Part shown: positions 42,005-50,177 of the stretch, one piece after another
Layout of the letters: each line of letters starts with the position of its first letter
Numbering within the stretch: the stretch's first letter is position 1
Origin: Chloroflexota bacterium
GTDB lineage: Bacteria; Chloroflexota; Limnocylindria; P2-11E
NCBI GenBank assembly: GCA_005889295.1
Contig: VBEY01000242.1
Location: forward strand, 1-50,244
Length of the DNA: 50,244 nt
Direction: 5' to 3'
Position numbers and translations under genes: made by a program
The notes under the pieces: model-generated
What the model saw: the letters and a program-made list of their open reading frames with translations, nothing else
Told to the model about the DNA's origin: nothing
Database searches by the model: none

Positions 42005-43411
42005 ATGACGATCACAAATCGCTTCGACACCGTCTCCCCGCTCGACTCTCGTTTTTATGGGGGCGATCCCGCTCTGTACAAAGCCTTGCATCCGTATCTG
42101 TCGGCCGCGGCCGCGATCAAGTACATGGCGAGAGTCGAGGGCGCACTCGCACTCGCGCTCGCGGATGTGGGCATCAGCGACAAGGCGACTGCGAACGCGA
42201 TCGCCAGCGCGGCCGATCGCATCACCGCGCAGGAGGTGGCCGAGGAGGAGACCCGCACGCGGCACGACGTGCGCGCGCTCGTGAATGTCATCCGCTCGCA
42301 GGTGCCTGACGAGGCCAAGCGCTTCGTGCACCTCGGCGCGACCAGTTACGACATCGTCGACACCGCGAACGCGCTCCGCTACCGCGAGTGCGTCGACCGG
42401 GTTCTCGTGCCCACTCTCGCCGTGCTCATCGCCAAGTGCATCTCCATCGCCGAGGCCGAGGCCGACACGGCCCAGATCGGCCGCACGCACGGCCGTCACG
42501 CCGAGCCCGTGACGTTCGGCTTCGCGATGGCCGAGTACGTCTCCCGCCTCGGCGATCGGCTCGAGGGATTACGCCTGGCGGCGCGGCGCCTTCCGGGCAA
42601 GCTCTCCGGCGCGGTCGGCGCGTACAACGCGCTCGCGCTGCTCGCCGAAGATCCCCGCGCGCTCGAGCGCAGGTTCCTGGGGAGCCTGCAGCTCCACGCG
42701 GCTCCGGTCTCCACGCAGATCGTCCCGCCCGAAGGGTGGACCGACCTGGCGCACTCCTGCGTGAGCGCGCTCGGGGTGATGGCCAACCTCGCCGACGACA
42801 TGCGGCAGCTCCAGCGGAGTGAGATCGGCGAGGTGGCCGAGTCCTTCGGCACGGAGCAGGTGGGATCGTCGACGATGCCGCACAAACGCAATCCGGTCTC
42901 CTTCGAGAACGTGAAGTCGATCTGGAAAGCGATCGCGCCGCGGATGCTCACGACATACATGGACCAGATCAGCGAACATCAGCGCGACCTCACGAACTCC
43001 GCGTCGCAGCGCTTCCTCGGCGAGATCCTCGCGGCGACCACGTATGCCGCGGGCCGTCTCGCATCGTCACTCGACGGCATGCGCGTCGACCGCGACCGCC
43101 TGAAGGCCAACCTCGCGATGTCTCGCGGGGCGATCGCGGCCGAGCCGCTCTACATCCTTCTCGCCAAGTACGGCCACCCCGACGCCCACGAGGCCGTGCG
43201 CCGGCTCACGCTCGAGGCCGAGCGCGGGTCGCGCTCGCTCCTCGAGGTCGCGACGCTCGACAACGATCTTCGCGAATACTTGAAGAAGTTCACGCCCGAC
43301 GAGCGGCGCATCCTCGAGCGACCCGAGGAATACCGCGGCCTCGCCGCCGAGGTCGCGCGGGATATCGCCTCGACGTGGCGCGAGCGCCTCAAGGGCATCC
43401 TTCCCGAGTGA
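42005..43411 (+). CDS. purB: Adenylosuccinate lyase
   Basis: 468 aa with SPLDSRFYG, GATSYDIVDTA, GRTHGRHAEPVTFG and the signature GSSTMPHKRNPV. Confidence 0.95.
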   Translation: MTITNRFDTVSPLDSRFYGGDPALYKALHPYLSAAAAIKYMARVEGALALALADVGISDKATANAIASAADRITAQEVAEEETRTRHDVRALVNVIRSQVPDEAKRFVHLGATSYDIVDTANALRYRECVDRVLVPTLAVLIAKCISIAEAEADTAQIGRTHGRHAEPVTFGFAMAEYVSRLGDRLEGLRLAARRLPGKLSGAVGAYNALALLAEDPRALERRFLGSLQLHAAPVSTQIVPPEGWTDLAHSCVSALGVMANLADDMRQLQRSEIGEVAESFGTEQVGSSTMPHKRNPVSFENVKSIWKAIAPRMLTTYMDQISEHQRDLTNSASQRFLGEILAATTYAAGRLASSLDGMRVDRDRLKANLAMSRGAIAAEPLYILLAKYGHPDAHEAVRRLTLEAERGSRSLLEVATLDNDLREYLKKFTPDERRILERPEEYRGLAAEVARDIASTWRERLKGILPE

Positions 43412-44295
43412 GCGTCCTCCTCGAATCGCGCGTCGATGGAGCCAGCCTCTTCCGTCGCGGCAAGGTGCGCGACGTGTACGAAGCGGGCGGGGACAAGCTC
43501 GTCATCGTCGCGAGCGATCGGCTGTCGGCGTTCGACGTCGTCCTCCCCACGCCGATTCCGGACAAGGGCCGCGTTCTCACGCAGCTTTCCAACTTCTGGT
43601 TTCGGAAAACCGAGAAGATCGTGCCGAACCATCTCGTCTCGACCGATCTCCGCCGCTTTCCGAAGGCGTTTCGCGGGTCGCGTTCGCTCGCCGGCCGCGC
43701 CGTCCTGGTGGAGCACTGCGAGCGCATCGACGTCGAGTGTGTCGCCCGCGGCTACATCTCCGGTTCCGCATGGACCGAGTACAAGGCGCTCGGCACCGTC
43801 GCCGGCGAGGAGCTCCCGAAGGCCCTGATCGAGTCAGAGCAGCTCGCCGAACCGATCTTCACGCCCGCGACAAAGGCAGAGTCCGGCCACGACCAGAACA
43901 TCAGTCGCGCGCAGCTCGCCGGGATGATCGGCACCGAGCTCGCCCGCGAGCTGGAGCGCCTGACCCTCGCGCTCTACCGCTTCGCGCACGACTACGCGGC
44001 GTCGAAGGGGCTTCTCCTCGCCGACACGAAGTTCGAGTTCGGCATGCACGACGGCCGGATCACGCTCATCGACGAGGTCCTCACCCCGGACTCGTCGCGG
44101 TACTGGGACGCCGCGGCGTACAAGCCCGGAAGCTCGCCCGCCTCCTTCGACAAGCAGTACGTGCGCGACTTCCTCCTACAGAGCGGTTGGAACAAAGAAC
44201 CTCCCGCCCCGGCGCTCCCGCCCGAGGTGGTGAAGGGGACGAGCGACCGGTATCGCGAGGCGTACAAGCGGATCGTCGGGAAGGCGCTCGCGTGA
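43408..44295 (+). CDS. purC: SAICAR synthetase
   Basis: The GTG at 43408 overlaps the purB stop as GTGA. Reads LFRRGKVRDVYEAGGDKLVIVASDRLSAFDVVLPTPIPDKGRVLTQLSNFWF...LADTKFEFG...DEVLTPDSSRYW. Confidence 0.9.
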   Translation: MSVLLESRVDGASLFRRGKVRDVYEAGGDKLVIVASDRLSAFDVVLPTPIPDKGRVLTQLSNFWFRKTEKIVPNHLVSTDLRRFPKAFRGSRSLAGRAVLVEHCERIDVECVARGYISGSAWTEYKALGTVAGEELPKALIESEQLAEPIFTPATKAESGHDQNISRAQLAGMIGTELARELERLTLALYRFAHDYAASKGLLLADTKFEFGMHDGRITLIDEVLTPDSSRYWDAAAYKPGSSPASFDKQYVRDFLLQSGWNKEPPAPALPPEVVKGTSDRYREAYKRIVGKALA

Positions 44296-44555
44296 GATTC
44301 GTCGCTCGCGTCCTGGTGCGGCCGAAGGCCGAGGTGCGCGATCCGCAGGGGGAGGCCGTGCTCGCGGCGCTGCGCTCGCTCGGGCACGACGTCGCGGAGG
44401 TGCGCACCGGCAAGGAGATCGTCGTCACCTTTGAGGCGCGCGACGAGAACGCAGCGCGAGAGACCGCGGATCGGATGGGCGACCAGCTCCTCGCCAACCC
44501 CGTCATCGAGAGCTACGCGGTCGAGGTCGAACGCGAGACCGCTAGGGCCCGCTGA
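44292..44555 (+). CDS. purS: FGAM synthase subunit PurS
   Basis: 87 aa. The GTG overlaps the purC stop as GTGA. Reads VRFVARVLVRPKAEVRDPQGEAVLAALRSLGHDVAEVRTGKEIVVTFEA...LANPVIESY. Confidence 0.85.
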   Translation: MRFVARVLVRPKAEVRDPQGEAVLAALRSLGHDVAEVRTGKEIVVTFEARDENAARETADRMGDQLLANPVIESYAVEVERETARAR

Positions 44556-45147
44556 GCTTCATCTCCGCGAGCTCGCGATCGCTGAAGACGCTTGGACAGA
44601 TCGGATCGCTACCGGGGGTGGCGGTGCAGGTCATCGGCGAATTCATGATCCCGACGCTCGAAAAGCCCGTCGGTGCTTCCTCCCAGTGGCCGTCCTTCGT
44701 TCCTGGTCCGAAGCAGCACCAGATGTGGCCCAGCTCGTGGAGGACCGTCGCCATAAGCTCGGGCACCGTGAGGCGTCGGCTCCCGTCGATCGTGTGGACC
44801 GCGATCATCCGCGAGGTCACCCGTCCGCCCCTTTGGTGCTGCATCAGCGCGGAGGTGCCGCTTGTGCCGTCGAGCTCGACATCGATGTCGCCGTCGGTAC
44901 GCACCGACAGGTGCCCTCGCCCAACCGTCGCAGTCGCCCAGGCGTTCGGCAGCGCGCCCGCAATCGCGTCACGCAGCTGCGGTAAGCGAGCTTTCTCCTG
45001 GGCGTCACCGTTATCGCCGATGAAAAGGTGAACGCTCAGGAACGCGGCCGAGATGAGCGGCGCGATCGTCGGGCCGGGTCGCAGGTCGCCAATAACCCCG
45101 CATGACGACGCAACGATGAGCACGAGCGCGCACGACGCGGCCTTCAC
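44542..45147 (-). CDS. Putative zinc metalloprotease lipoprotein (HExxH)
   Basis: 201 aa. Has a signal with a lipobox-like IVASSC and the zinc motif VLHELGHIW. Several Cys residues are present in the C-terminal half. It lies on the opposite strand inside the pur cluster, and its 3' end overlaps the purS 3' end by 14 nt. Confidence 0.6.
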   Translation of the reverse strand: MKAASCALVLIVASSCGVIGDLRPGPTIAPLISAAFLSVHLFIGDNGDAQEKARLPQLRDAIAGALPNAWATATVGRGHLSVRTDGDIDVELDGTSGTSALMQHQRGGRVTSRMIAVHTIDGSRRLTVPELMATVLHELGHIWCCFGPGTKDGHWEEAPTGFSSVGIMNSPMTCTATPGSDPICPSVFSDRELAEMKLSGP

Positions 45148-45198
45148 GAACCGAAATTACGTCCCACCACCTCGTGCGCATGCATCAAACTGGTGGTG

Positions 45199-45912
45199 AT
45201 GACGCGCGTCGCGATCCTCCGCTACCCCGGCACGTGGAGCGAGCGCGACTTCGCGCACGCGCTCTCGCTCATACCGGGCGTCGAGTCGGAGGTTCAGTGG
45301 CACGAGGACACGAACCTGCGCGGGTTCGACGCTGCGATCGTGCCGGGTGGCTTCAGCTATGGCGACTACCTCCGCGCCGGCGCGATCGCGAAGCTCTCAC
45401 CCGGGACGAAGGAGCTCCGCCGTTTCGCTTCGGAGGGCGGCGCGATCCTCGGGAGCTGCAATGGCTTTCAGATCCTCTGCGAGGCCGGACTCCTGCCGGG
45501 CGCCCTCATCCGCAACGCTGACCTTGCCTATCGCTCGGACTGGGTGCGCATCCGGGTCGAGAGTGACCGCACGCCGTTCACCAATGGACTTCGCGGCGCG
45601 GTCCTCCGTATGCCGATCGGCAACGGCGAAGGCTGCTGGGTGGCTGATCCGGAGACGAACGCACGCGTCGAGGCAGCCGGACAGGTCGCGTTCCGCTACG
45701 TCGATGAGCGTGGCGTCGCAACAGCGGCCGCGAATCCCAATGGATCACTTGGAAACATCGCCGGTGTCACGAATGAAACCGGCAACGTCCTGGGACTTAT
45801 GCCGCACCCGGAACGCTGCGTGGAAGCGCTCCTGGGGGGTACGGATGGGTATCGGATGCTGGGGAACCTCGCAGGAGCCCGCCACGGCACGGCTCCTGCC
45901 TTATATAGATAG
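45199..45912 (+). CDS. purQ: FGAM synthase glutaminase subunit PurQ
   Basis: Reads MTRVAILRYPGTWSERD...AAIVPGGFSYGDYLRAGAIA...GSCNGFQILCEAGLLPG...GLMPHPER, which covers the catalytic Cys and the HPE motif. The track start (GTG at 45193) is two codons earlier. Confidence 0.9.
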   Translation: MTRVAILRYPGTWSERDFAHALSLIPGVESEVQWHEDTNLRGFDAAIVPGGFSYGDYLRAGAIAKLSPGTKELRRFASEGGAILGSCNGFQILCEAGLLPGALIRNADLAYRSDWVRIRVESDRTPFTNGLRGAVLRMPIGNGEGCWVADPETNARVEAAGQVAFRYVDERGVATAAANPNGSLGNIAGVTNETGNVLGLMPHPERCVEALLGGTDGYRMLGNLAGARHGTAPALYR

Positions 45913-45914
45913 GT

Positions 45915-46766
45915 ATGGACCTCTTCGAAAAGCAGGCCCAGCTGCAAAGTCTGTTTCAGACTTCGCCGGTCGACGCGGCCTATGCCCAGGGGACGGTCAC
46001 GGGCCGGCGCATCGCGGGCACTTACCAAGATCTCGACGTCGCCCTTCTTCTGCTTTCGCGAGTGAACGCGAGCGAGTTCTTCGACTATCAGGTGTACTTC
46101 GTGAGCGAGCTCTCCAAAACGCTCGAGACCGAGGGCCTCGACGTCGTGATCCTGAACCAGGCATCGCTCCTTCAGCGCGCGCAGATCATCCGCAGCTGGA
46201 GTCTCCTCTACCAGCGCGACCAGAAGCGGCGCGTGCACTTCGAGGCGCGGTCGGTCATGGACTACCTCGAGTTCAAGAAGTACGACGACGTGCAATCGAA
46301 GGCGCTCGCCGAGCGCACCCGCGGCGAGCGCTTCGCGATCGACGCCGCGTACGTGCGCGCGCGCATCGCTCGACTGCGCGAGTACACGACCCTCCTGGGT
46401 GACCTTCGGGCGATCGAGCACACCAAGTTCAAGGCGGACCCGAAGCTGTACGGCCTCGCGCAGTGGCACCTGCAGCAGGCGGTCGAGCTCCTCTTCGGCA
46501 CCGGCGCGTATCTCGTTACCGCGCTCGCGCTCCCCAAGCCCGAGGCCTACCACGACATCCTCGACGCAATCGCCGGCCACGGGGTGATCGAGCGGGCGCT
46601 CGCGTACCGGCTCGAGCACCTCGCGAACTTGCGGAACCTGCTGGCCTTCGACCGCGAGCAGACCGACATCGACGACGTCTACAGTCAGATCCAGACACGG
46701 ATCCCGGACCTCGTCGCCTTCGCCGATCAGGTCGAGAAATTCGTGGGTACCGGAGACCTGTCCTAA
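45915..46766 (+). CDS. Single-chain fusion of minimal nucleotidyltransferase (MntA-like) and HEPN/DUF86 (HepT-like) domains
   Basis: The N-half reads AQGTVTGRRIAGTYQDLDVALLL...GLDVVILNQASLLQRAQIIRSWSLLYQRD and carries an NTase G[ST]...DxD plus the typical MNT tail. The C-half reads ADPKLYGLAQWHLQQAVELLFGTGAYLV...HDILDAIAGHGVI...LRNLLAFDRE, the DUF86 layout. F replaces the catalytic His of the RNxxxH motif. Confidence 0.65.
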   Translation: MDLFEKQAQLQSLFQTSPVDAAYAQGTVTGRRIAGTYQDLDVALLLLSRVNASEFFDYQVYFVSELSKTLETEGLDVVILNQASLLQRAQIIRSWSLLYQRDQKRRVHFEARSVMDYLEFKKYDDVQSKALAERTRGERFAIDAAYVRARIARLREYTTLLGDLRAIEHTKFKADPKLYGLAQWHLQQAVELLFGTGAYLVTALALPKPEAYHDILDAIAGHGVIERALAYRLEHLANLRNLLAFDREQTDIDDVYSQIQTRIPDLVAFADQVEKFVGTGDLS

Positions 46767-46792
46767 CTTTTCGCGCTTCCCAATATCGGCGT

Positions 46793-47812
46793 GTGGGCTA
46801 TCGCCGCAGGTTGGGGTTCGCCTCAGTCTTTGGCGCGGTCCTCTTAGCCTCCTGCCTGCAGTCCGCGAGCGCACCCTCTCCATCGCCCGCTGTCCCTTCT
46901 GCCTCGCCGACGATCGTCTCTTCGAGCGCCACTCCGCTCACGACAACGGCACAAGGGACGGCACCGGCGGCAGCGAAGCCTTCACCTCGACCGGTCGCTG
47001 CCGAACGTCCATCCGACCTGGTCATTCGGCTTGAATTGGCCGGCGATACGTGCTGTCCCATCCCGTGGGCTGTGCTGACCGCCGACGGCCGCTTCGTCAC
47101 GAGAACGGACGAGGCCTTGGTGCGAGAACGCAGACTCACGCCCGCTGGCGTGCAGCTCGTGCGCGACGAGATCGCCTCCACAGGTCTGTTCGAGCGCGAC
47201 CAACAAGTTCCGCTCGAGCCGCGGCCGGGCGCGAGCGCGCCGCAACGTGGAGTGGGAGCTCTTTTGTTCAAGGTTTGGCGCGACACGCGCAGCGTTGAGG
47301 TGGGAACAGCTACGGATCAGGGGGCGGACGAGGTCTTTTTCCAGCCGTCAGCCGCACGAACACGCTTGGACCGGCTCTCGAAGCAACTCTTGAAACCCGA
47401 GACCTGGCTTCCCGCGAACCCGTGGGCTGACTCCGTACCACGGGCTTACGAGGCGGCGACGTTCGCGTTGCTCCTTCGTACTGAGATCGGCCAAGCGAAT
47501 GAGCGACCAATGATCGACACGCTCCAGGCGACGTGGCCCTTCTCCGTAGGGCCCCTCGACCTCGGTCAGCCTCTCCCCGCGACTGCGGGCCCCGGGGCCG
47601 ACATGACCAGATGCTCTGTGCTGACGCGTGAGGACATGGTCGCGGTCGCGAATGCGATGGTGCGGGCTAGTGAGCCCGATCCGGTCTACACCTTGTCGGA
47701 CGGCACGCTCCTAACCTCGTTTGCCCGGGCGGACAACCAGGGCCGACTTGTCGTGACACTGCGTCCGCTCCTTCCGGATCGTCGGTCGTGCAACGGCGAG
47801 TACACCCAGTAG
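46793..47812 (+). CDS. Lipoprotein of unknown function
   Basis: The GTG at 46793 lies within track ORF 46463-47812. The product begins VGYRRRLGFASVFGAVLLASC (lipobox LASC). A Ser/Pro/Ala/Thr linker and a roughly 270-aa domain with no recognised motif follow. Confidence 0.6.
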   Translation: MGYRRRLGFASVFGAVLLASCLQSASAPSPSPAVPSASPTIVSSSATPLTTTAQGTAPAAAKPSPRPVAAERPSDLVIRLELAGDTCCPIPWAVLTADGRFVTRTDEALVRERRLTPAGVQLVRDEIASTGLFERDQQVPLEPRPGASAPQRGVGALLFKVWRDTRSVEVGTATDQGADEVFFQPSAARTRLDRLSKQLLKPETWLPANPWADSVPRAYEAATFALLLRTEIGQANERPMIDTLQATWPFSVGPLDLGQPLPATAGPGADMTRCSVLTREDMVAVANAMVRASEPDPVYTLSDGTLLTSFARADNQGRLVVTLRPLLPDRRSCNGEYTQ

Positions 47813-47873
47813 GATCCTTTGTCCTGGTCCGCTACTCTTTCCCCCTGATGGCGCCCGGAGCGAACCCCCGAAC

Positions 47874-50177
47874 GTGAGTGCGTCCCCGGCCTTGGGGACG
47901 ACGAAAACGGCGCAGCCTAACCAGATTCCACAGGACGCAGGCCTCACCGAACACGAGGCTGCCCTCGTGCGCGATCTCAGCGGCCGCGAGCCGAACGCGC
48001 TCGAGTGGGCGATGTTCGGCGCGATGTGGAGCGAGCACTGCGCGTACAAGCACTCCAAGAAGCTCCTGCGGACGCTGCCCTCGCGCGGCCCGTCCGTCGC
48101 CGTGGGACCGGGCGAGAACGCGGGCGCCGTCGATCTCGGCGATGGACTCCTCTGCGTCTTCAAGGTCGAGAGCCACAACCACCCGTCCGCGATCGAGCCG
48201 TTCCAGGGCGCGGCCACGGGCGTCGGCGGAATCCTCCGCGACGTCTTCGCGATGGGCGCGCGGCCGACCGCCGTCTTGAACGCGCTCTTCTTCGGAGACC
48301 CAGGCGATGCCCGCGTCCGCCGCACGATCTCGGGGGTCACCGGCGGCATCTCGTTCTACGGAAACTGCGTCGGCATCCCCGACGTCGCCGGGCACATCTC
48401 CTTCGAGCCGTGCTATGCCGAGAACCCGCTCGTGAACGCGATGTGCGTCGGCTTCGCGCGAGCCGAGGATCTCCGCAAGGCGAGCGGCGCACGGCCGGGG
48501 AGCGCCGTTTACCTCGTCGGCAGCGACACCGGCCGCGATGGGATCGCGGGCGCGTCGCTGCTCGCGTCATTCGAGCTCGGCACGGGCTCAGACCAAAAGC
48601 GCCCATCCGTCCAGGTCGGGAACCCGTTCCTCGAGAAGCTGCTGCTCGAAGCCACGCTGGAGCTCGTCGCAGCCGACGCGATCGAAGCTGTGCAGGACCT
48701 CGGCGCCGCCGGGCTGACGTGCGCGACGAGCGAAGTCGCCGCAAAGAGCGGCGTCGGTATGCGCATCGACGTCTCACTCGTTCCCCGTCGGGCACTCGCG
48801 ATGACGCCATACGAGGTGATGCTGTCGGAGTCCCAAGAAAGAATGCTCGTCGTCGCGCGTCCCGGCCGCGAGCGCGACGTCGAGCGCATCTTTACGCGCT
48901 GGGAGCTGCACGGCACCCGCATTGGCGAAGTGACCGCCGAGCCCCTTCTCAAGATCTTCGATGCCGACAATCTGGTCGCCGAGCTGCCGCCTCGAGCTCT
49001 CGCCGACGACGCTCCCGAATACGACATACGCGAGCTAGCGGCGTCGTATCGCGGATCGGACGAGGGGGCTGTCGGCGCAGTGGGACCCGGCGACCCTGCG
49101 TGGTCGACGGAGGGACCCGCGAGCACGACAGCCCCCTTGGCCGAGCCGCAACGGGCGACGGCCAAGATCGGTCTTGAGCTGCTCGATTTGCTCGCGTCCC
49201 CGGCGATCGCATCGCGACGGCTGATCTATCGAACCTATGACCAGATGGTCGGCACGGACACGGTCGTCGGACCCGGCGCCGATGCGGCGGTCATGCGTAT
49301 TAAGGGTCGGCCAGACGGCATCGCGCTCGCGATCGACGCGCAGCCGCGACTCGCGGCGATCGATCCATTCGTCGGCGCCGCGGCCGCGGTCGCCGAGGCG
49401 ACGCGCAATCTCGTGTGCATGGGCGCGACGCCACTCGCCATCACCGACTGCCTGAACATCGGCAACCCCGAGCGGCCCAAGGGCGCCTGGCAACTCACCC
49501 GCACCGTCGAGGGGATCGCCGCCGCGTGCGATGCGCTCGGCGTTCCGGTCGTCTCCGGGAACGTGTCCCTCTACAACGCCACGCACGGCGCCGACATCTG
49601 GCCGACCGCCGTCATCGGTGCCGTCGGCCGATTTGTCGACGTCACGAAGCACCTCGCACCGACGAGTGGCAGGCCGGGCGATCTCGTGCTGCTCGCGGGC
49701 AGCGCTCAGGTGTCCATCGGCCCATCGGCGTACGGCGCTGCGCGTGGCATCCACGAGGGGCCGGTCGCGATCGATCTCGACCTCGAGGCGCGGCTGCAGC
49801 GCTTCGTTCTCGCGGGGCATTCAAAGGGGGCGATCCGCGCGGCGCACGACCGCGATGCGGGCGGCCTCGGCGTCGCGCTGGCGGAGGTCGCGATCCGCGA
49901 TGGCATCGGCATGAAGGTCACACTTCCCGCGATCCGGGGGATCGACAAACGGGTCGCGCTCTTCGGCGAAGCTCCGTCAGGGATCGTTCTCGTCGTCGAC
50001 CCTGCGCGCGAGAGCGACGTGCGCGCGCTCGCGTCCCAGCACGAGGTGGCGCTCTGGACCCTCGGCACGGTCGGCGGCGACCTTCTGGAAGTCGCGCCGG
50101 TCCTCGGGACGCCGGTCAGCGCGTTGGCCGACGCGCACGCGCGCGGACTCGGTCGCGCGCTCGGGAGGGATGCATGA
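47874..50177 (+). CDS. purL: FGAM synthase II (large subunit PurL)
   Basis: 767 aa with EWAMFGAMWSEHCAYKHSK, VESHNHPSAIEPFQGAATGVGGILRD and PYEVMLSESQERML. Confidence 0.95.
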   Translation: MSASPALGTTKTAQPNQIPQDAGLTEHEAALVRDLSGREPNALEWAMFGAMWSEHCAYKHSKKLLRTLPSRGPSVAVGPGENAGAVDLGDGLLCVFKVESHNHPSAIEPFQGAATGVGGILRDVFAMGARPTAVLNALFFGDPGDARVRRTISGVTGGISFYGNCVGIPDVAGHISFEPCYAENPLVNAMCVGFARAEDLRKASGARPGSAVYLVGSDTGRDGIAGASLLASFELGTGSDQKRPSVQVGNPFLEKLLLEATLELVAADAIEAVQDLGAAGLTCATSEVAAKSGVGMRIDVSLVPRRALAMTPYEVMLSESQERMLVVARPGRERDVERIFTRWELHGTRIGEVTAEPLLKIFDADNLVAELPPRALADDAPEYDIRELAASYRGSDEGAVGAVGPGDPAWSTEGPASTTAPLAEPQRATAKIGLELLDLLASPAIASRRLIYRTYDQMVGTDTVVGPGADAAVMRIKGRPDGIALAIDAQPRLAAIDPFVGAAAAVAEATRNLVCMGATPLAITDCLNIGNPERPKGAWQLTRTVEGIAAACDALGVPVVSGNVSLYNATHGADIWPTAVIGAVGRFVDVTKHLAPTSGRPGDLVLLAGSAQVSIGPSAYGAARGIHEGPVAIDLDLEARLQRFVLAGHSKGAIRAAHDRDAGGLGVALAEVAIRDGIGMKVTLPAIRGIDKRVALFGEAPSGIVLVVDPARESDVRALASQHEVALWTLGTVGGDLLEVAPVLGTPVSALADAHARGLGRALGRDA

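Follow-up and report, generated by a model that had tools for sequence, protein, structure and literature searches.

Why should a protein resembling a fused toxin–antitoxin (TA) module be encoded inside a purine biosynthesis operon? The question is raised by contig VBEY01000242.1 of a Chloroflexota bacterium (GTDB lineage Bacteria; Chloroflexota; Limnocylindria; P2-11E), analysed here as one stretch of 50,244 nt (the window). In it a gene that we designate X lies between purQ and purL, both encoding components of formylglycinamidine ribonucleotide (FGAM) synthase. The product of X is a single chain in which a minimal nucleotidyltransferase (MNT) domain of the MntA-like nucleotidyltransferase (NTase) type is followed by a HepT-like HEPN domain. 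We consider X to be, probably, a domesticated and RNase-dead descendant of a fused MntA-HepT (type VII) TA module, whose conserved activity would consist in non-catalytic binding or regulation. The features concerned are listed here by window position:

45193–45912, plus strand: purQ, glutaminase subunit of FGAM synthase (PF13507 GATase_5, 146 bits).
45900–45917, plus strand: AT-rich TATATAGATAGG run at the purQ–X junction, read from the sequence; the same or similar in most orthologous loci.
45915–46766, plus strand: X, a 283-aa single-chain MNT (MntA-like NTase) and HEPN (HepT-like) protein with a predicted dead RNase site.
45942–46223, plus strand: MNT (pol-beta-type NTase) domain of X, residues 10–103 (PF18765, MntA_antitoxin, Foldseek).
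46374–46730, plus strand: HEPN/HepT-like domain of X, residues 154–272 (PF01934, Foldseek).
46632–46655, plus strand: degenerate R-x4-H helix of X, R240-N-L-L-A-F245-D-R247 (alignment with Shewanella HepT; column counts).
47874–50177, plus strand: purL, small-type FGAM synthase (open reading frame (ORF) map; orthologous purL follows X elsewhere).

A first-pass annotation, made from the letters alone, had described X as a single-chain fusion of an NTase with a DUF86/HEPN domain, and matches to protein families and to solved type VII proteins agree with this description. In Pfam, residues 154–272 match the HepT-like family PF01934 with 59.5 bits, passing the gathering cut-off of 23.5, and residues 10–103 match the Polbeta NTase family PF18765 with 25.9 bits, just below the cut-off of 26.9. 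Two NCBIfam profiles, the equivalog HepT_toxin (NF047751; 57.4 bits) and MntA_antitoxin (NF047752; 44.9 bits), are also matched, both below their cut-off of 60. A sequence search of the PDB with X returned only Shewanella HepT (5yep, 6m6u, 6m6w). The AlphaFold2 (AF2) model, built on 30 relatives, has a mean predicted local distance difference test score (pLDDT) of 82 and a predicted template-modelling score (pTM) of 0.50; in Foldseek its C-terminal half superposes on the HEPN toxins 7ae6, 7ae8 and 7ae2 with a template-modelling score (TMt) of 0.85–0.91, and its N-terminal half on the MntA chains 6m6v_A and 7bxo_A with a TMt of about 0.72. Every NTase and HEPN motif quoted by the annotation is present in the protein, and they read G26-T27..G30-R-R, D39-L-D41-VALLL, L75-D76-VVILNQASLL and L239-R-N-L-L-A-F245-D.

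The same annotation had pointed to the layout of ANT(4′)-type small-molecule NTases, a suggestion that does not survive structural comparison. The best full-length matches of this kind, AAD(9) (6xz0) and 3c18, reach only TM 0.25–0.29 with a root-mean-square deviation of 15–20 Å, and at E ≤ 1 no Pfam match to PF07827 (Aminoglycoside_NT_C), DUF4037, GlnE, GlnD or PF08335-type families was obtained. Set against the superpositions on HEPN toxins and MntA, these values identify X as a single-chain MntA-HepT protein and not as an ANT/AAD-type enzyme, which we rejected.

The ribonuclease site of the HEPN half, R-x4-6-H in type VII HepT toxins, is degenerate. Alignment to Shewanella HepT pairs LRNLLAFDR of X with LRNIAVHDY, placing Phe245 at the catalytic His and Arg247 at the Tyr (His+2) that is oligo-AMPylated by MntA in HepT. 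Active-site columns were counted in an alignment of 70 X orthologues: the His position is occupied by Tyr in 67 and by Phe in three, His+2 is Arg in 69 and Lys in one, and the helix around them is otherwise invariant (R-N-L-L-A-[Y67/F3]-D-R-E-Q-T-D). As His is found at this position in 0/70 orthologues, a sequencing error masking it in the window, which had been named as a possible flaw, can be ruled out. The earlier claim that the His is replaced is thus upheld, with the amendment that the Phe of the window is the minority state of a Tyr consensus; its occurrence here points to an aromatic position whose hydroxyl is dispensable. Judged by these residues, RNase activity of X is unlikely.

The NTase half has a different history. 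Its motifs G26-T27, D39-x-D41 and D76, to be set beside the MNT signature G-S-x(9-11)-D-x-D plus a third acidic residue, are intact in the X of the window, and the catalytic motif is intact in about 46 of the 70 orthologues; in about 24 (about one third) it is substituted, 14 of them having S, Q or G in place of D41 and a distinct set of 10 having M, N, L or R in place of S/T27. Purifying selection did not slacken with these losses. Measured against close relatives, the ratio of non-synonymous to synonymous substitution rates (dN/dS) is 0.03–0.13 for X, 0.05–0.17 for purQ and 0.09–0.25 for purL, and in the clade lacking D41 the NTase domain alone gives 0.052, equal to its value elsewhere and below those of purQ and purL. 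Loss of NTase residues without relaxed constraint indicates a constraint on the fold that catalysis does not explain, and hence suggests a binding, scaffolding or regulatory role. Since the fold and the invariant HEPN helix are kept even where NTase residues are lost, the conserved activity is most likely non-catalytic; going by these patterns of substitution, the conserved role of X is probably binding, scaffolding or regulation.

These data also bear on the view that X is an active NTase (a protein AMPylase, or else an NTase for small molecules) whose dead HEPN domain binds the substrate, as proposed for GlnE/GlnD and kanamycin nucleotidyltransferase (KNTase), and whose target is a protein or metabolite of the purine pathway. 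The intact residues in the window and in the majority of orthologues speak for it, as does their invariance in 27/27 members of a related subfamily of the Ktedonobacteraceae type described below, and this route of exaptation has been described (Anantharaman et al. 2013, PMC3710099). We nevertheless judge such an activity unlikely, given the substitutions at D41 and S/T27, the unchanged NTase-domain dN/dS in the D41-less clade, and the lack of ANT/AAD fold similarity and of GlnE, GlnD or Aminoglycoside_NT_C matches reported above. GlnE/GlnD and KNTase do resemble X in that a TA-derived MNT with a dead HEPN domain is reused for binding or regulation in metabolism (PMC3710099), but X has stayed nearer to genuine HepT and MntA, and in one third of species its NTase site is decaying.

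Active fused MNT-HEPN proteins are a described TA type, represented by FhepTA (SO_1440) from the Shewanella oneidensis prophage CP4So (Yao et al. 2026, PMC13000451). The layout of X is much the same: one chain of about 280 aa (276 aa in FhepTA) in which an MntA-like NTase at the N-terminus is joined by a short linker to a HEPN domain at the C-terminus. Size and architecture might therefore be taken to mean that X is a still-working fused TA or defence module of the FhepTA type, stabilising itself within an essential operon, and some databases do call the sister proteins of X a HepT family RNase toxin. We regard this as highly improbable. FhepTA carries an R-phi-xxx-H motif with an adjacent Tyr, auto-oligoAMPylates, has two regulatory cysteines in its HEPN domain and is toxic once the HEPN half is freed, whereas in X the His has given way to Phe or Tyr and the Tyr to Arg, and the whole chain is free of cysteine. 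FhepTA resides on prophages and mobile elements; X is a single-copy gene, vertically inherited in the purine operon and under strong purifying selection, with dN/dS as low as that of core enzymes, and it is not matched in PADLOC.

Two further candidates of this kind were rejected. Neither X nor the lipoprotein encoded immediately downstream of it matches PHROGs or PADLOC, which disfavours a phage or defence origin of either. X is also the sole PF01934 match in the source genome of the window, which is 92% complete, and so a role as an antitoxin acting in trans on a second HepT was dismissed.

In sequence and in structure, the two halves of X are matched best by two-gene type VII HepT/MntA systems, namely those of Shewanella (SO_3166/SO_3165; 5yep, 6m6u, 7bxo) and the HEPN/MNT pair of Aphanizomenon (PDB 7ae2–7ae9). 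These systems share the NTase numbering D39/D41 with X, but they consist of separate genes, possess an active Rx4H RNase and a Tyr that accepts AMPylation, and are typically mobile and multicopy, all of which sets them apart from X. Closer in layout are the many fused MNT-HEPN proteins returned by an exhaustive profile-free search, 270–300 aa in length and 26–33% identical to X, which retain RN(I/L)LVHxY. In a maximum-likelihood tree the His-less proteins, comprising the pur-linked family together with P0130, P0135 and P0139, form one clade (support 100/100) with a long stem, nested among the His-bearing fused proteins; X descends from such proteins. MNT-fused HEPN domains were noted to lack catalytic residues for the most part and to represent domesticated TA systems (Anantharaman et al. 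2013, PMC3710099), and X is a new, well-defined instance of this route.

Among the possibilities listed by the first-pass annotation, a domesticated TA module is the one best backed by synteny and selection. In a survey of 41 related genomes, the genome of the window included, X occurs as a single intact copy in that genome, in 19 of the 21 other genomes of its genus, in all three other genera of the family, and in one of two genomes representing another family of the order; none of the 14 surveyed genomes of the class outside this order has it. Three genomes within the order in which X is missing also lack purQ in their assemblies, which suggests that these assemblies are simply incomplete. 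A synteny scan of species-representative genomes returned 80 loci, and in every one that is sufficiently long the gene order is purQ-X-purL, usually preceded by purB-purC-purS. X is thus kept between purQ and purL across the order, at the low dN/dS values given above. Six short contigs with a purQ-X-purL arrangement of Limnocylindria type (L023, L036, L040, L067, L068 and L088; 72–97% identity) are filed in metagenome-assembled genomes titled Bathyarchaeia, Acidiferrales, Udaeobacter, Gaiellaceae and Saccharimonadales, and are most likely binning contaminants.

Spacing within the operon is tight. The gap between purQ and X is mostly 2–10 nt across loci, and in 46 of 68 scorable loci the stop codon of X overlaps the purL start as ATGA (4 nt). 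A spacer of 45–65 nt separates X from purL in 12 of the 68, including most close relatives of the window, and 1–5.4 kb of additional DNA is found there in eight, the window among them. At the upstream junction the purQ stop codon (TAG, ending at 45912) is embedded in an AT-rich TATATAGATAGG-like run that provides an AGG just 5′ of the X ATG at 45915 (window 45900–45914); the run is conserved in most orthologous loci and takes the form CGTTCAATAGG in other clades, in genomes of 65–70% GC. The run with its AGG fits translational coupling of purQ and X, and it may also act as an internal promoter. To judge from the sequences, the short gaps and ATGA overlaps mark X as a member of the operon whose translation is coupled to that of its neighbours.

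How far this context extends to a function in purine synthesis is a separate matter, on which relatives of X elsewhere are informative. A phylum-wide scan revealed a sister subfamily in Ktedonobacteraceae and a few other groups, 40–46% identical to X over the full length and numbering at least 1187 proteins in Ktedonobacteraceae (e.g., P0272). Its members share with X the M-[DN]-LFEKQ N-terminus, the architecture and a non-conserved HEPN His. The NTase residues do not vary among the 27 members compared; the "His" position varies widely, with Y, H, R, S, C, N and W all represented. In some records they are entered as "type VII toxin-antitoxin system HepT family RNase toxin", a name for which the motif gives no support. 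A GntR regulator is encoded near the Ktedonobacteraceae loci (L129–L155, L156–L163). Among the other His-less relatives, P0130 (44% identity to X) follows a purQ-like gene. Within the class, purL comes straight after purQ in one family, and in another a gene for an unrelated double-zinc-ribbon membrane protein lies at the junction (L105:2242-3156, L108:2242-3240); this protein is about 300 aa long with several membrane helices, and the end of its gene overlaps the purL start.

Several observations weigh against the interpretation of X as a non-catalytic protein of purine metabolism. The NTase motifs are intact in the genome of the window itself, so that X may be enzymatically active there, and the model, with a pTM of 0.50, leaves the relative placement of the two domains uncertain. 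The Ktedonobacteraceae sister genes do not lie near pur genes: in about 20 of 23 loci they are found 120–500 nt 3′ of moaD-moaE, convergent with a TPR gene, which weakens a strictly purine-specific role for X. P0135 and P0139 occupy unrelated housekeeping neighbourhoods. The zinc-ribbon gene between purQ and purL indicates that this junction has been invaded independently and is a permissive site, and fixation of X there may accordingly reflect the site and not a function; the purine link of X is drawn from gene order alone.

From these observations one can construct an explanation in which X is a general housekeeping protein unrelated to purines, riding a constitutively expressed operon at a permissive purQ–purL site. 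The moaD-moaE context of the Ktedonobacteraceae sister, the unrelated contexts of other relatives, the zinc-ribbon gene at the same junction in another family of the class, and the varied cargo accepted by the spacer between X and purL all agree with it. Two features are harder to reconcile with a passive passenger: the coupling, 2–10 nt upstream and by ATGA overlap downstream, has been retained over the entire order, and the pur-linked subfamily has an invariant HEPN helix, in contrast to the sister subfamily with its hypervariable "His" position. We regard this explanation as possible, though on balance doubtful.

The restriction of the invariant HEPN helix to the pur-linked subfamily suggests a new constraint gained with the new context. 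Together with the tight order-wide coupling, a context-specific role is favoured by an independent precedent, a PurF of Methanospirillum hungatei that carries a HEPN-type domain at its C-terminus, for which a nucleotide-binding role has been suggested (Brown et al. 2011, PMC3261824). This remark was the sole find in the literature on a link between purL or purQ and HEPN domains. Compared by description only, the archaeal protein resembles X in that a HEPN-type domain is independently tied to a glutamine-dependent purine enzyme, and differs in being fused to PurF and in having no MNT domain. With respect to the first-pass suggestion of nucleotidyl transfer tied to purine metabolism, the intact NTase motifs of the window are in its favour, and the substitutions in about 24 of 70 orthologues and the sister family after moaD-moaE count against it. 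A direct role of X with FGAM synthase seems to us, on gene context, to lie between unlikely and barely plausible.

For X as a domesticated, RNase-dead MntA-HepT protein, we favour the following course. The line leading from a fused MntA-HepT TA ancestor lost the catalytic residues of the HEPN RNase site, both the His and the acceptor Tyr. X has ceased to behave like a selfish or defence element and is a vertically inherited, single-copy, strongly constrained cytoplasmic protein. With the purQ stop adjoining the X start and the X stop overlapping the purL start, its translation would be coupled to that of PurQ and PurL. It may act as a regulator or adaptor whose former NTase/HEPN cleft binds a nucleotide or a partner protein; if operon position is taken as the guide, that partner might be the PurL/PurQ/PurS FGAM synthase or the feedback on it by purine nucleotides. 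Descent, motif loss, conserved position and purifying selection are shown by the comparisons above; the binding or regulatory role and the tie to FGAM synthase are inferred. In its most specific form, which we put forward as speculation and think distinctly unlikely, X would be a fourth component, non-catalytic and hitherto overlooked, of the small-PurL type of FGAM synthase system in Limnocylindria: a TA-derived pseudoenzyme, stoichiometric with PurQ and PurL, that binds a purine nucleotide in the relic cleft (R240, N241, the aromatic residue 245, D246, R247) and tunes PurL-PurQ-PurS assembly or activity.

The segment between X and purL holds a second additional gene in the window:

46793–47812, plus strand: 339-aa lipoprotein of unknown function; no family match above cut-off.
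46844–46855, plus strand: lipobox L-A-S-C (Cys21) of this lipoprotein, read from the sequence.

As the first-pass annotation had it, two extra genes on the strand of purQ and purL stand between them, with gaps of 2, 26 and 61 nt, and the coordinates bear this out; the lipoprotein gene and purL both start with GTG (46793 and 47874). The lipoprotein prediction derives from an RRR n-region, a hydrophobic h-region and the lipobox L18-A-S-C21, which conforms to [LVI][ASTVI][GAS]C; a homologue in L025 retains LLASC. The protein was said to lack a recognisable domain, and we likewise obtained no match above cut-off in Pfam (a sub-threshold SPAN only) and none in NCBIfam, PHROGs or PADLOC. Its AF2 model (pLDDT 80.7, pTM 0.74) has no PDB match at E ≤ 0.001, the best being a partial match to Mago with a TMt of 0.56. 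Only 39 homologues were found, every one named "hypothetical".

The suggestion that X and the lipoprotein form a pair fails on their distributions: X is order-wide (80 loci), and the lipoprotein gene is found in the spacer of just three sampled genomes (that of the window, G002/L023 and G014/L025). Since it also has paralogues of 37–40% identity at other loci and the same spacer holds other cargo elsewhere, the lipoprotein was rejected as a conserved partner of X. In L023 and L024 this other cargo is a flavin monooxygenase-like gene, in L026 and L042 an AAA_16-LuxR regulator on the minus strand, in L035 a gene with an ABM domain, and in L059 a Hen1+Pnkp RNA-repair pair. The X–purL spacer (window 46767–47873) is a recurrent insertion site in the genus and family, and the lipoprotein gene is an unrelated, recent, strain-level or lineage-specific insertion encoding a predicted envelope protein. 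A public 261-aa gene call, P0143, runs from the final part of X (PF01934) into the beginning of the lipoprotein, so the X–lipoprotein arrangement is present in at least one further metagenome contig, where it has been miscalled as one protein.

The remaining part of the purine cluster lies upstream:

42005–43411: purB (ORF map).
43375–44295: purC (ORF map).
44292–44555, plus strand: purS, small subunit of FGAM synthase (PF02700 PurS, 90.6 bits).
44542–45147, minus strand: 201-aa HExxH lipoprotein-like ORF between purS and purQ; no Pfam or NCBIfam match above cut-off.

The purS-purQ-purL layout given by the annotation was right about the two extra genes between purQ and purL and missed the minus-strand ORF, which separates purS from purQ. 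This ORF is genus-specific: homologues at the same position were found only in the genomes nearest to that of the window, which marks it as a second intrusion into the pur cluster, and a recent one. No abrupt change in base composition is seen across the locus (GC 0.62–0.68 over X and the lipoprotein gene, 0.66–0.71 in their neighbours). Within the purQ–purL unit no Rfam element, consensus terminator or consensus promoter was found, the promoter consensus being uninformative for Chloroflexota.

TA modules are usually regarded as mobile, fast-evolving and selfish. X offers a clean natural example of the domestication of such a module into a probable pseudoenzyme, in which the RNase residues, and in many species the transferase residues too, have been lost. 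It has been fixed in a core biosynthetic operon over the whole history of a bacterial order, where it evolves more slowly than the neighbouring enzymes. Database names need correcting as well, as annotation of X-type proteins as a HepT ribonuclease or toxin is not supported by their sequences. For the Limnocylindria order that carries it, X is a concrete, testable candidate for a new accessory factor, serving FGAM synthase or else some other housekeeping process.

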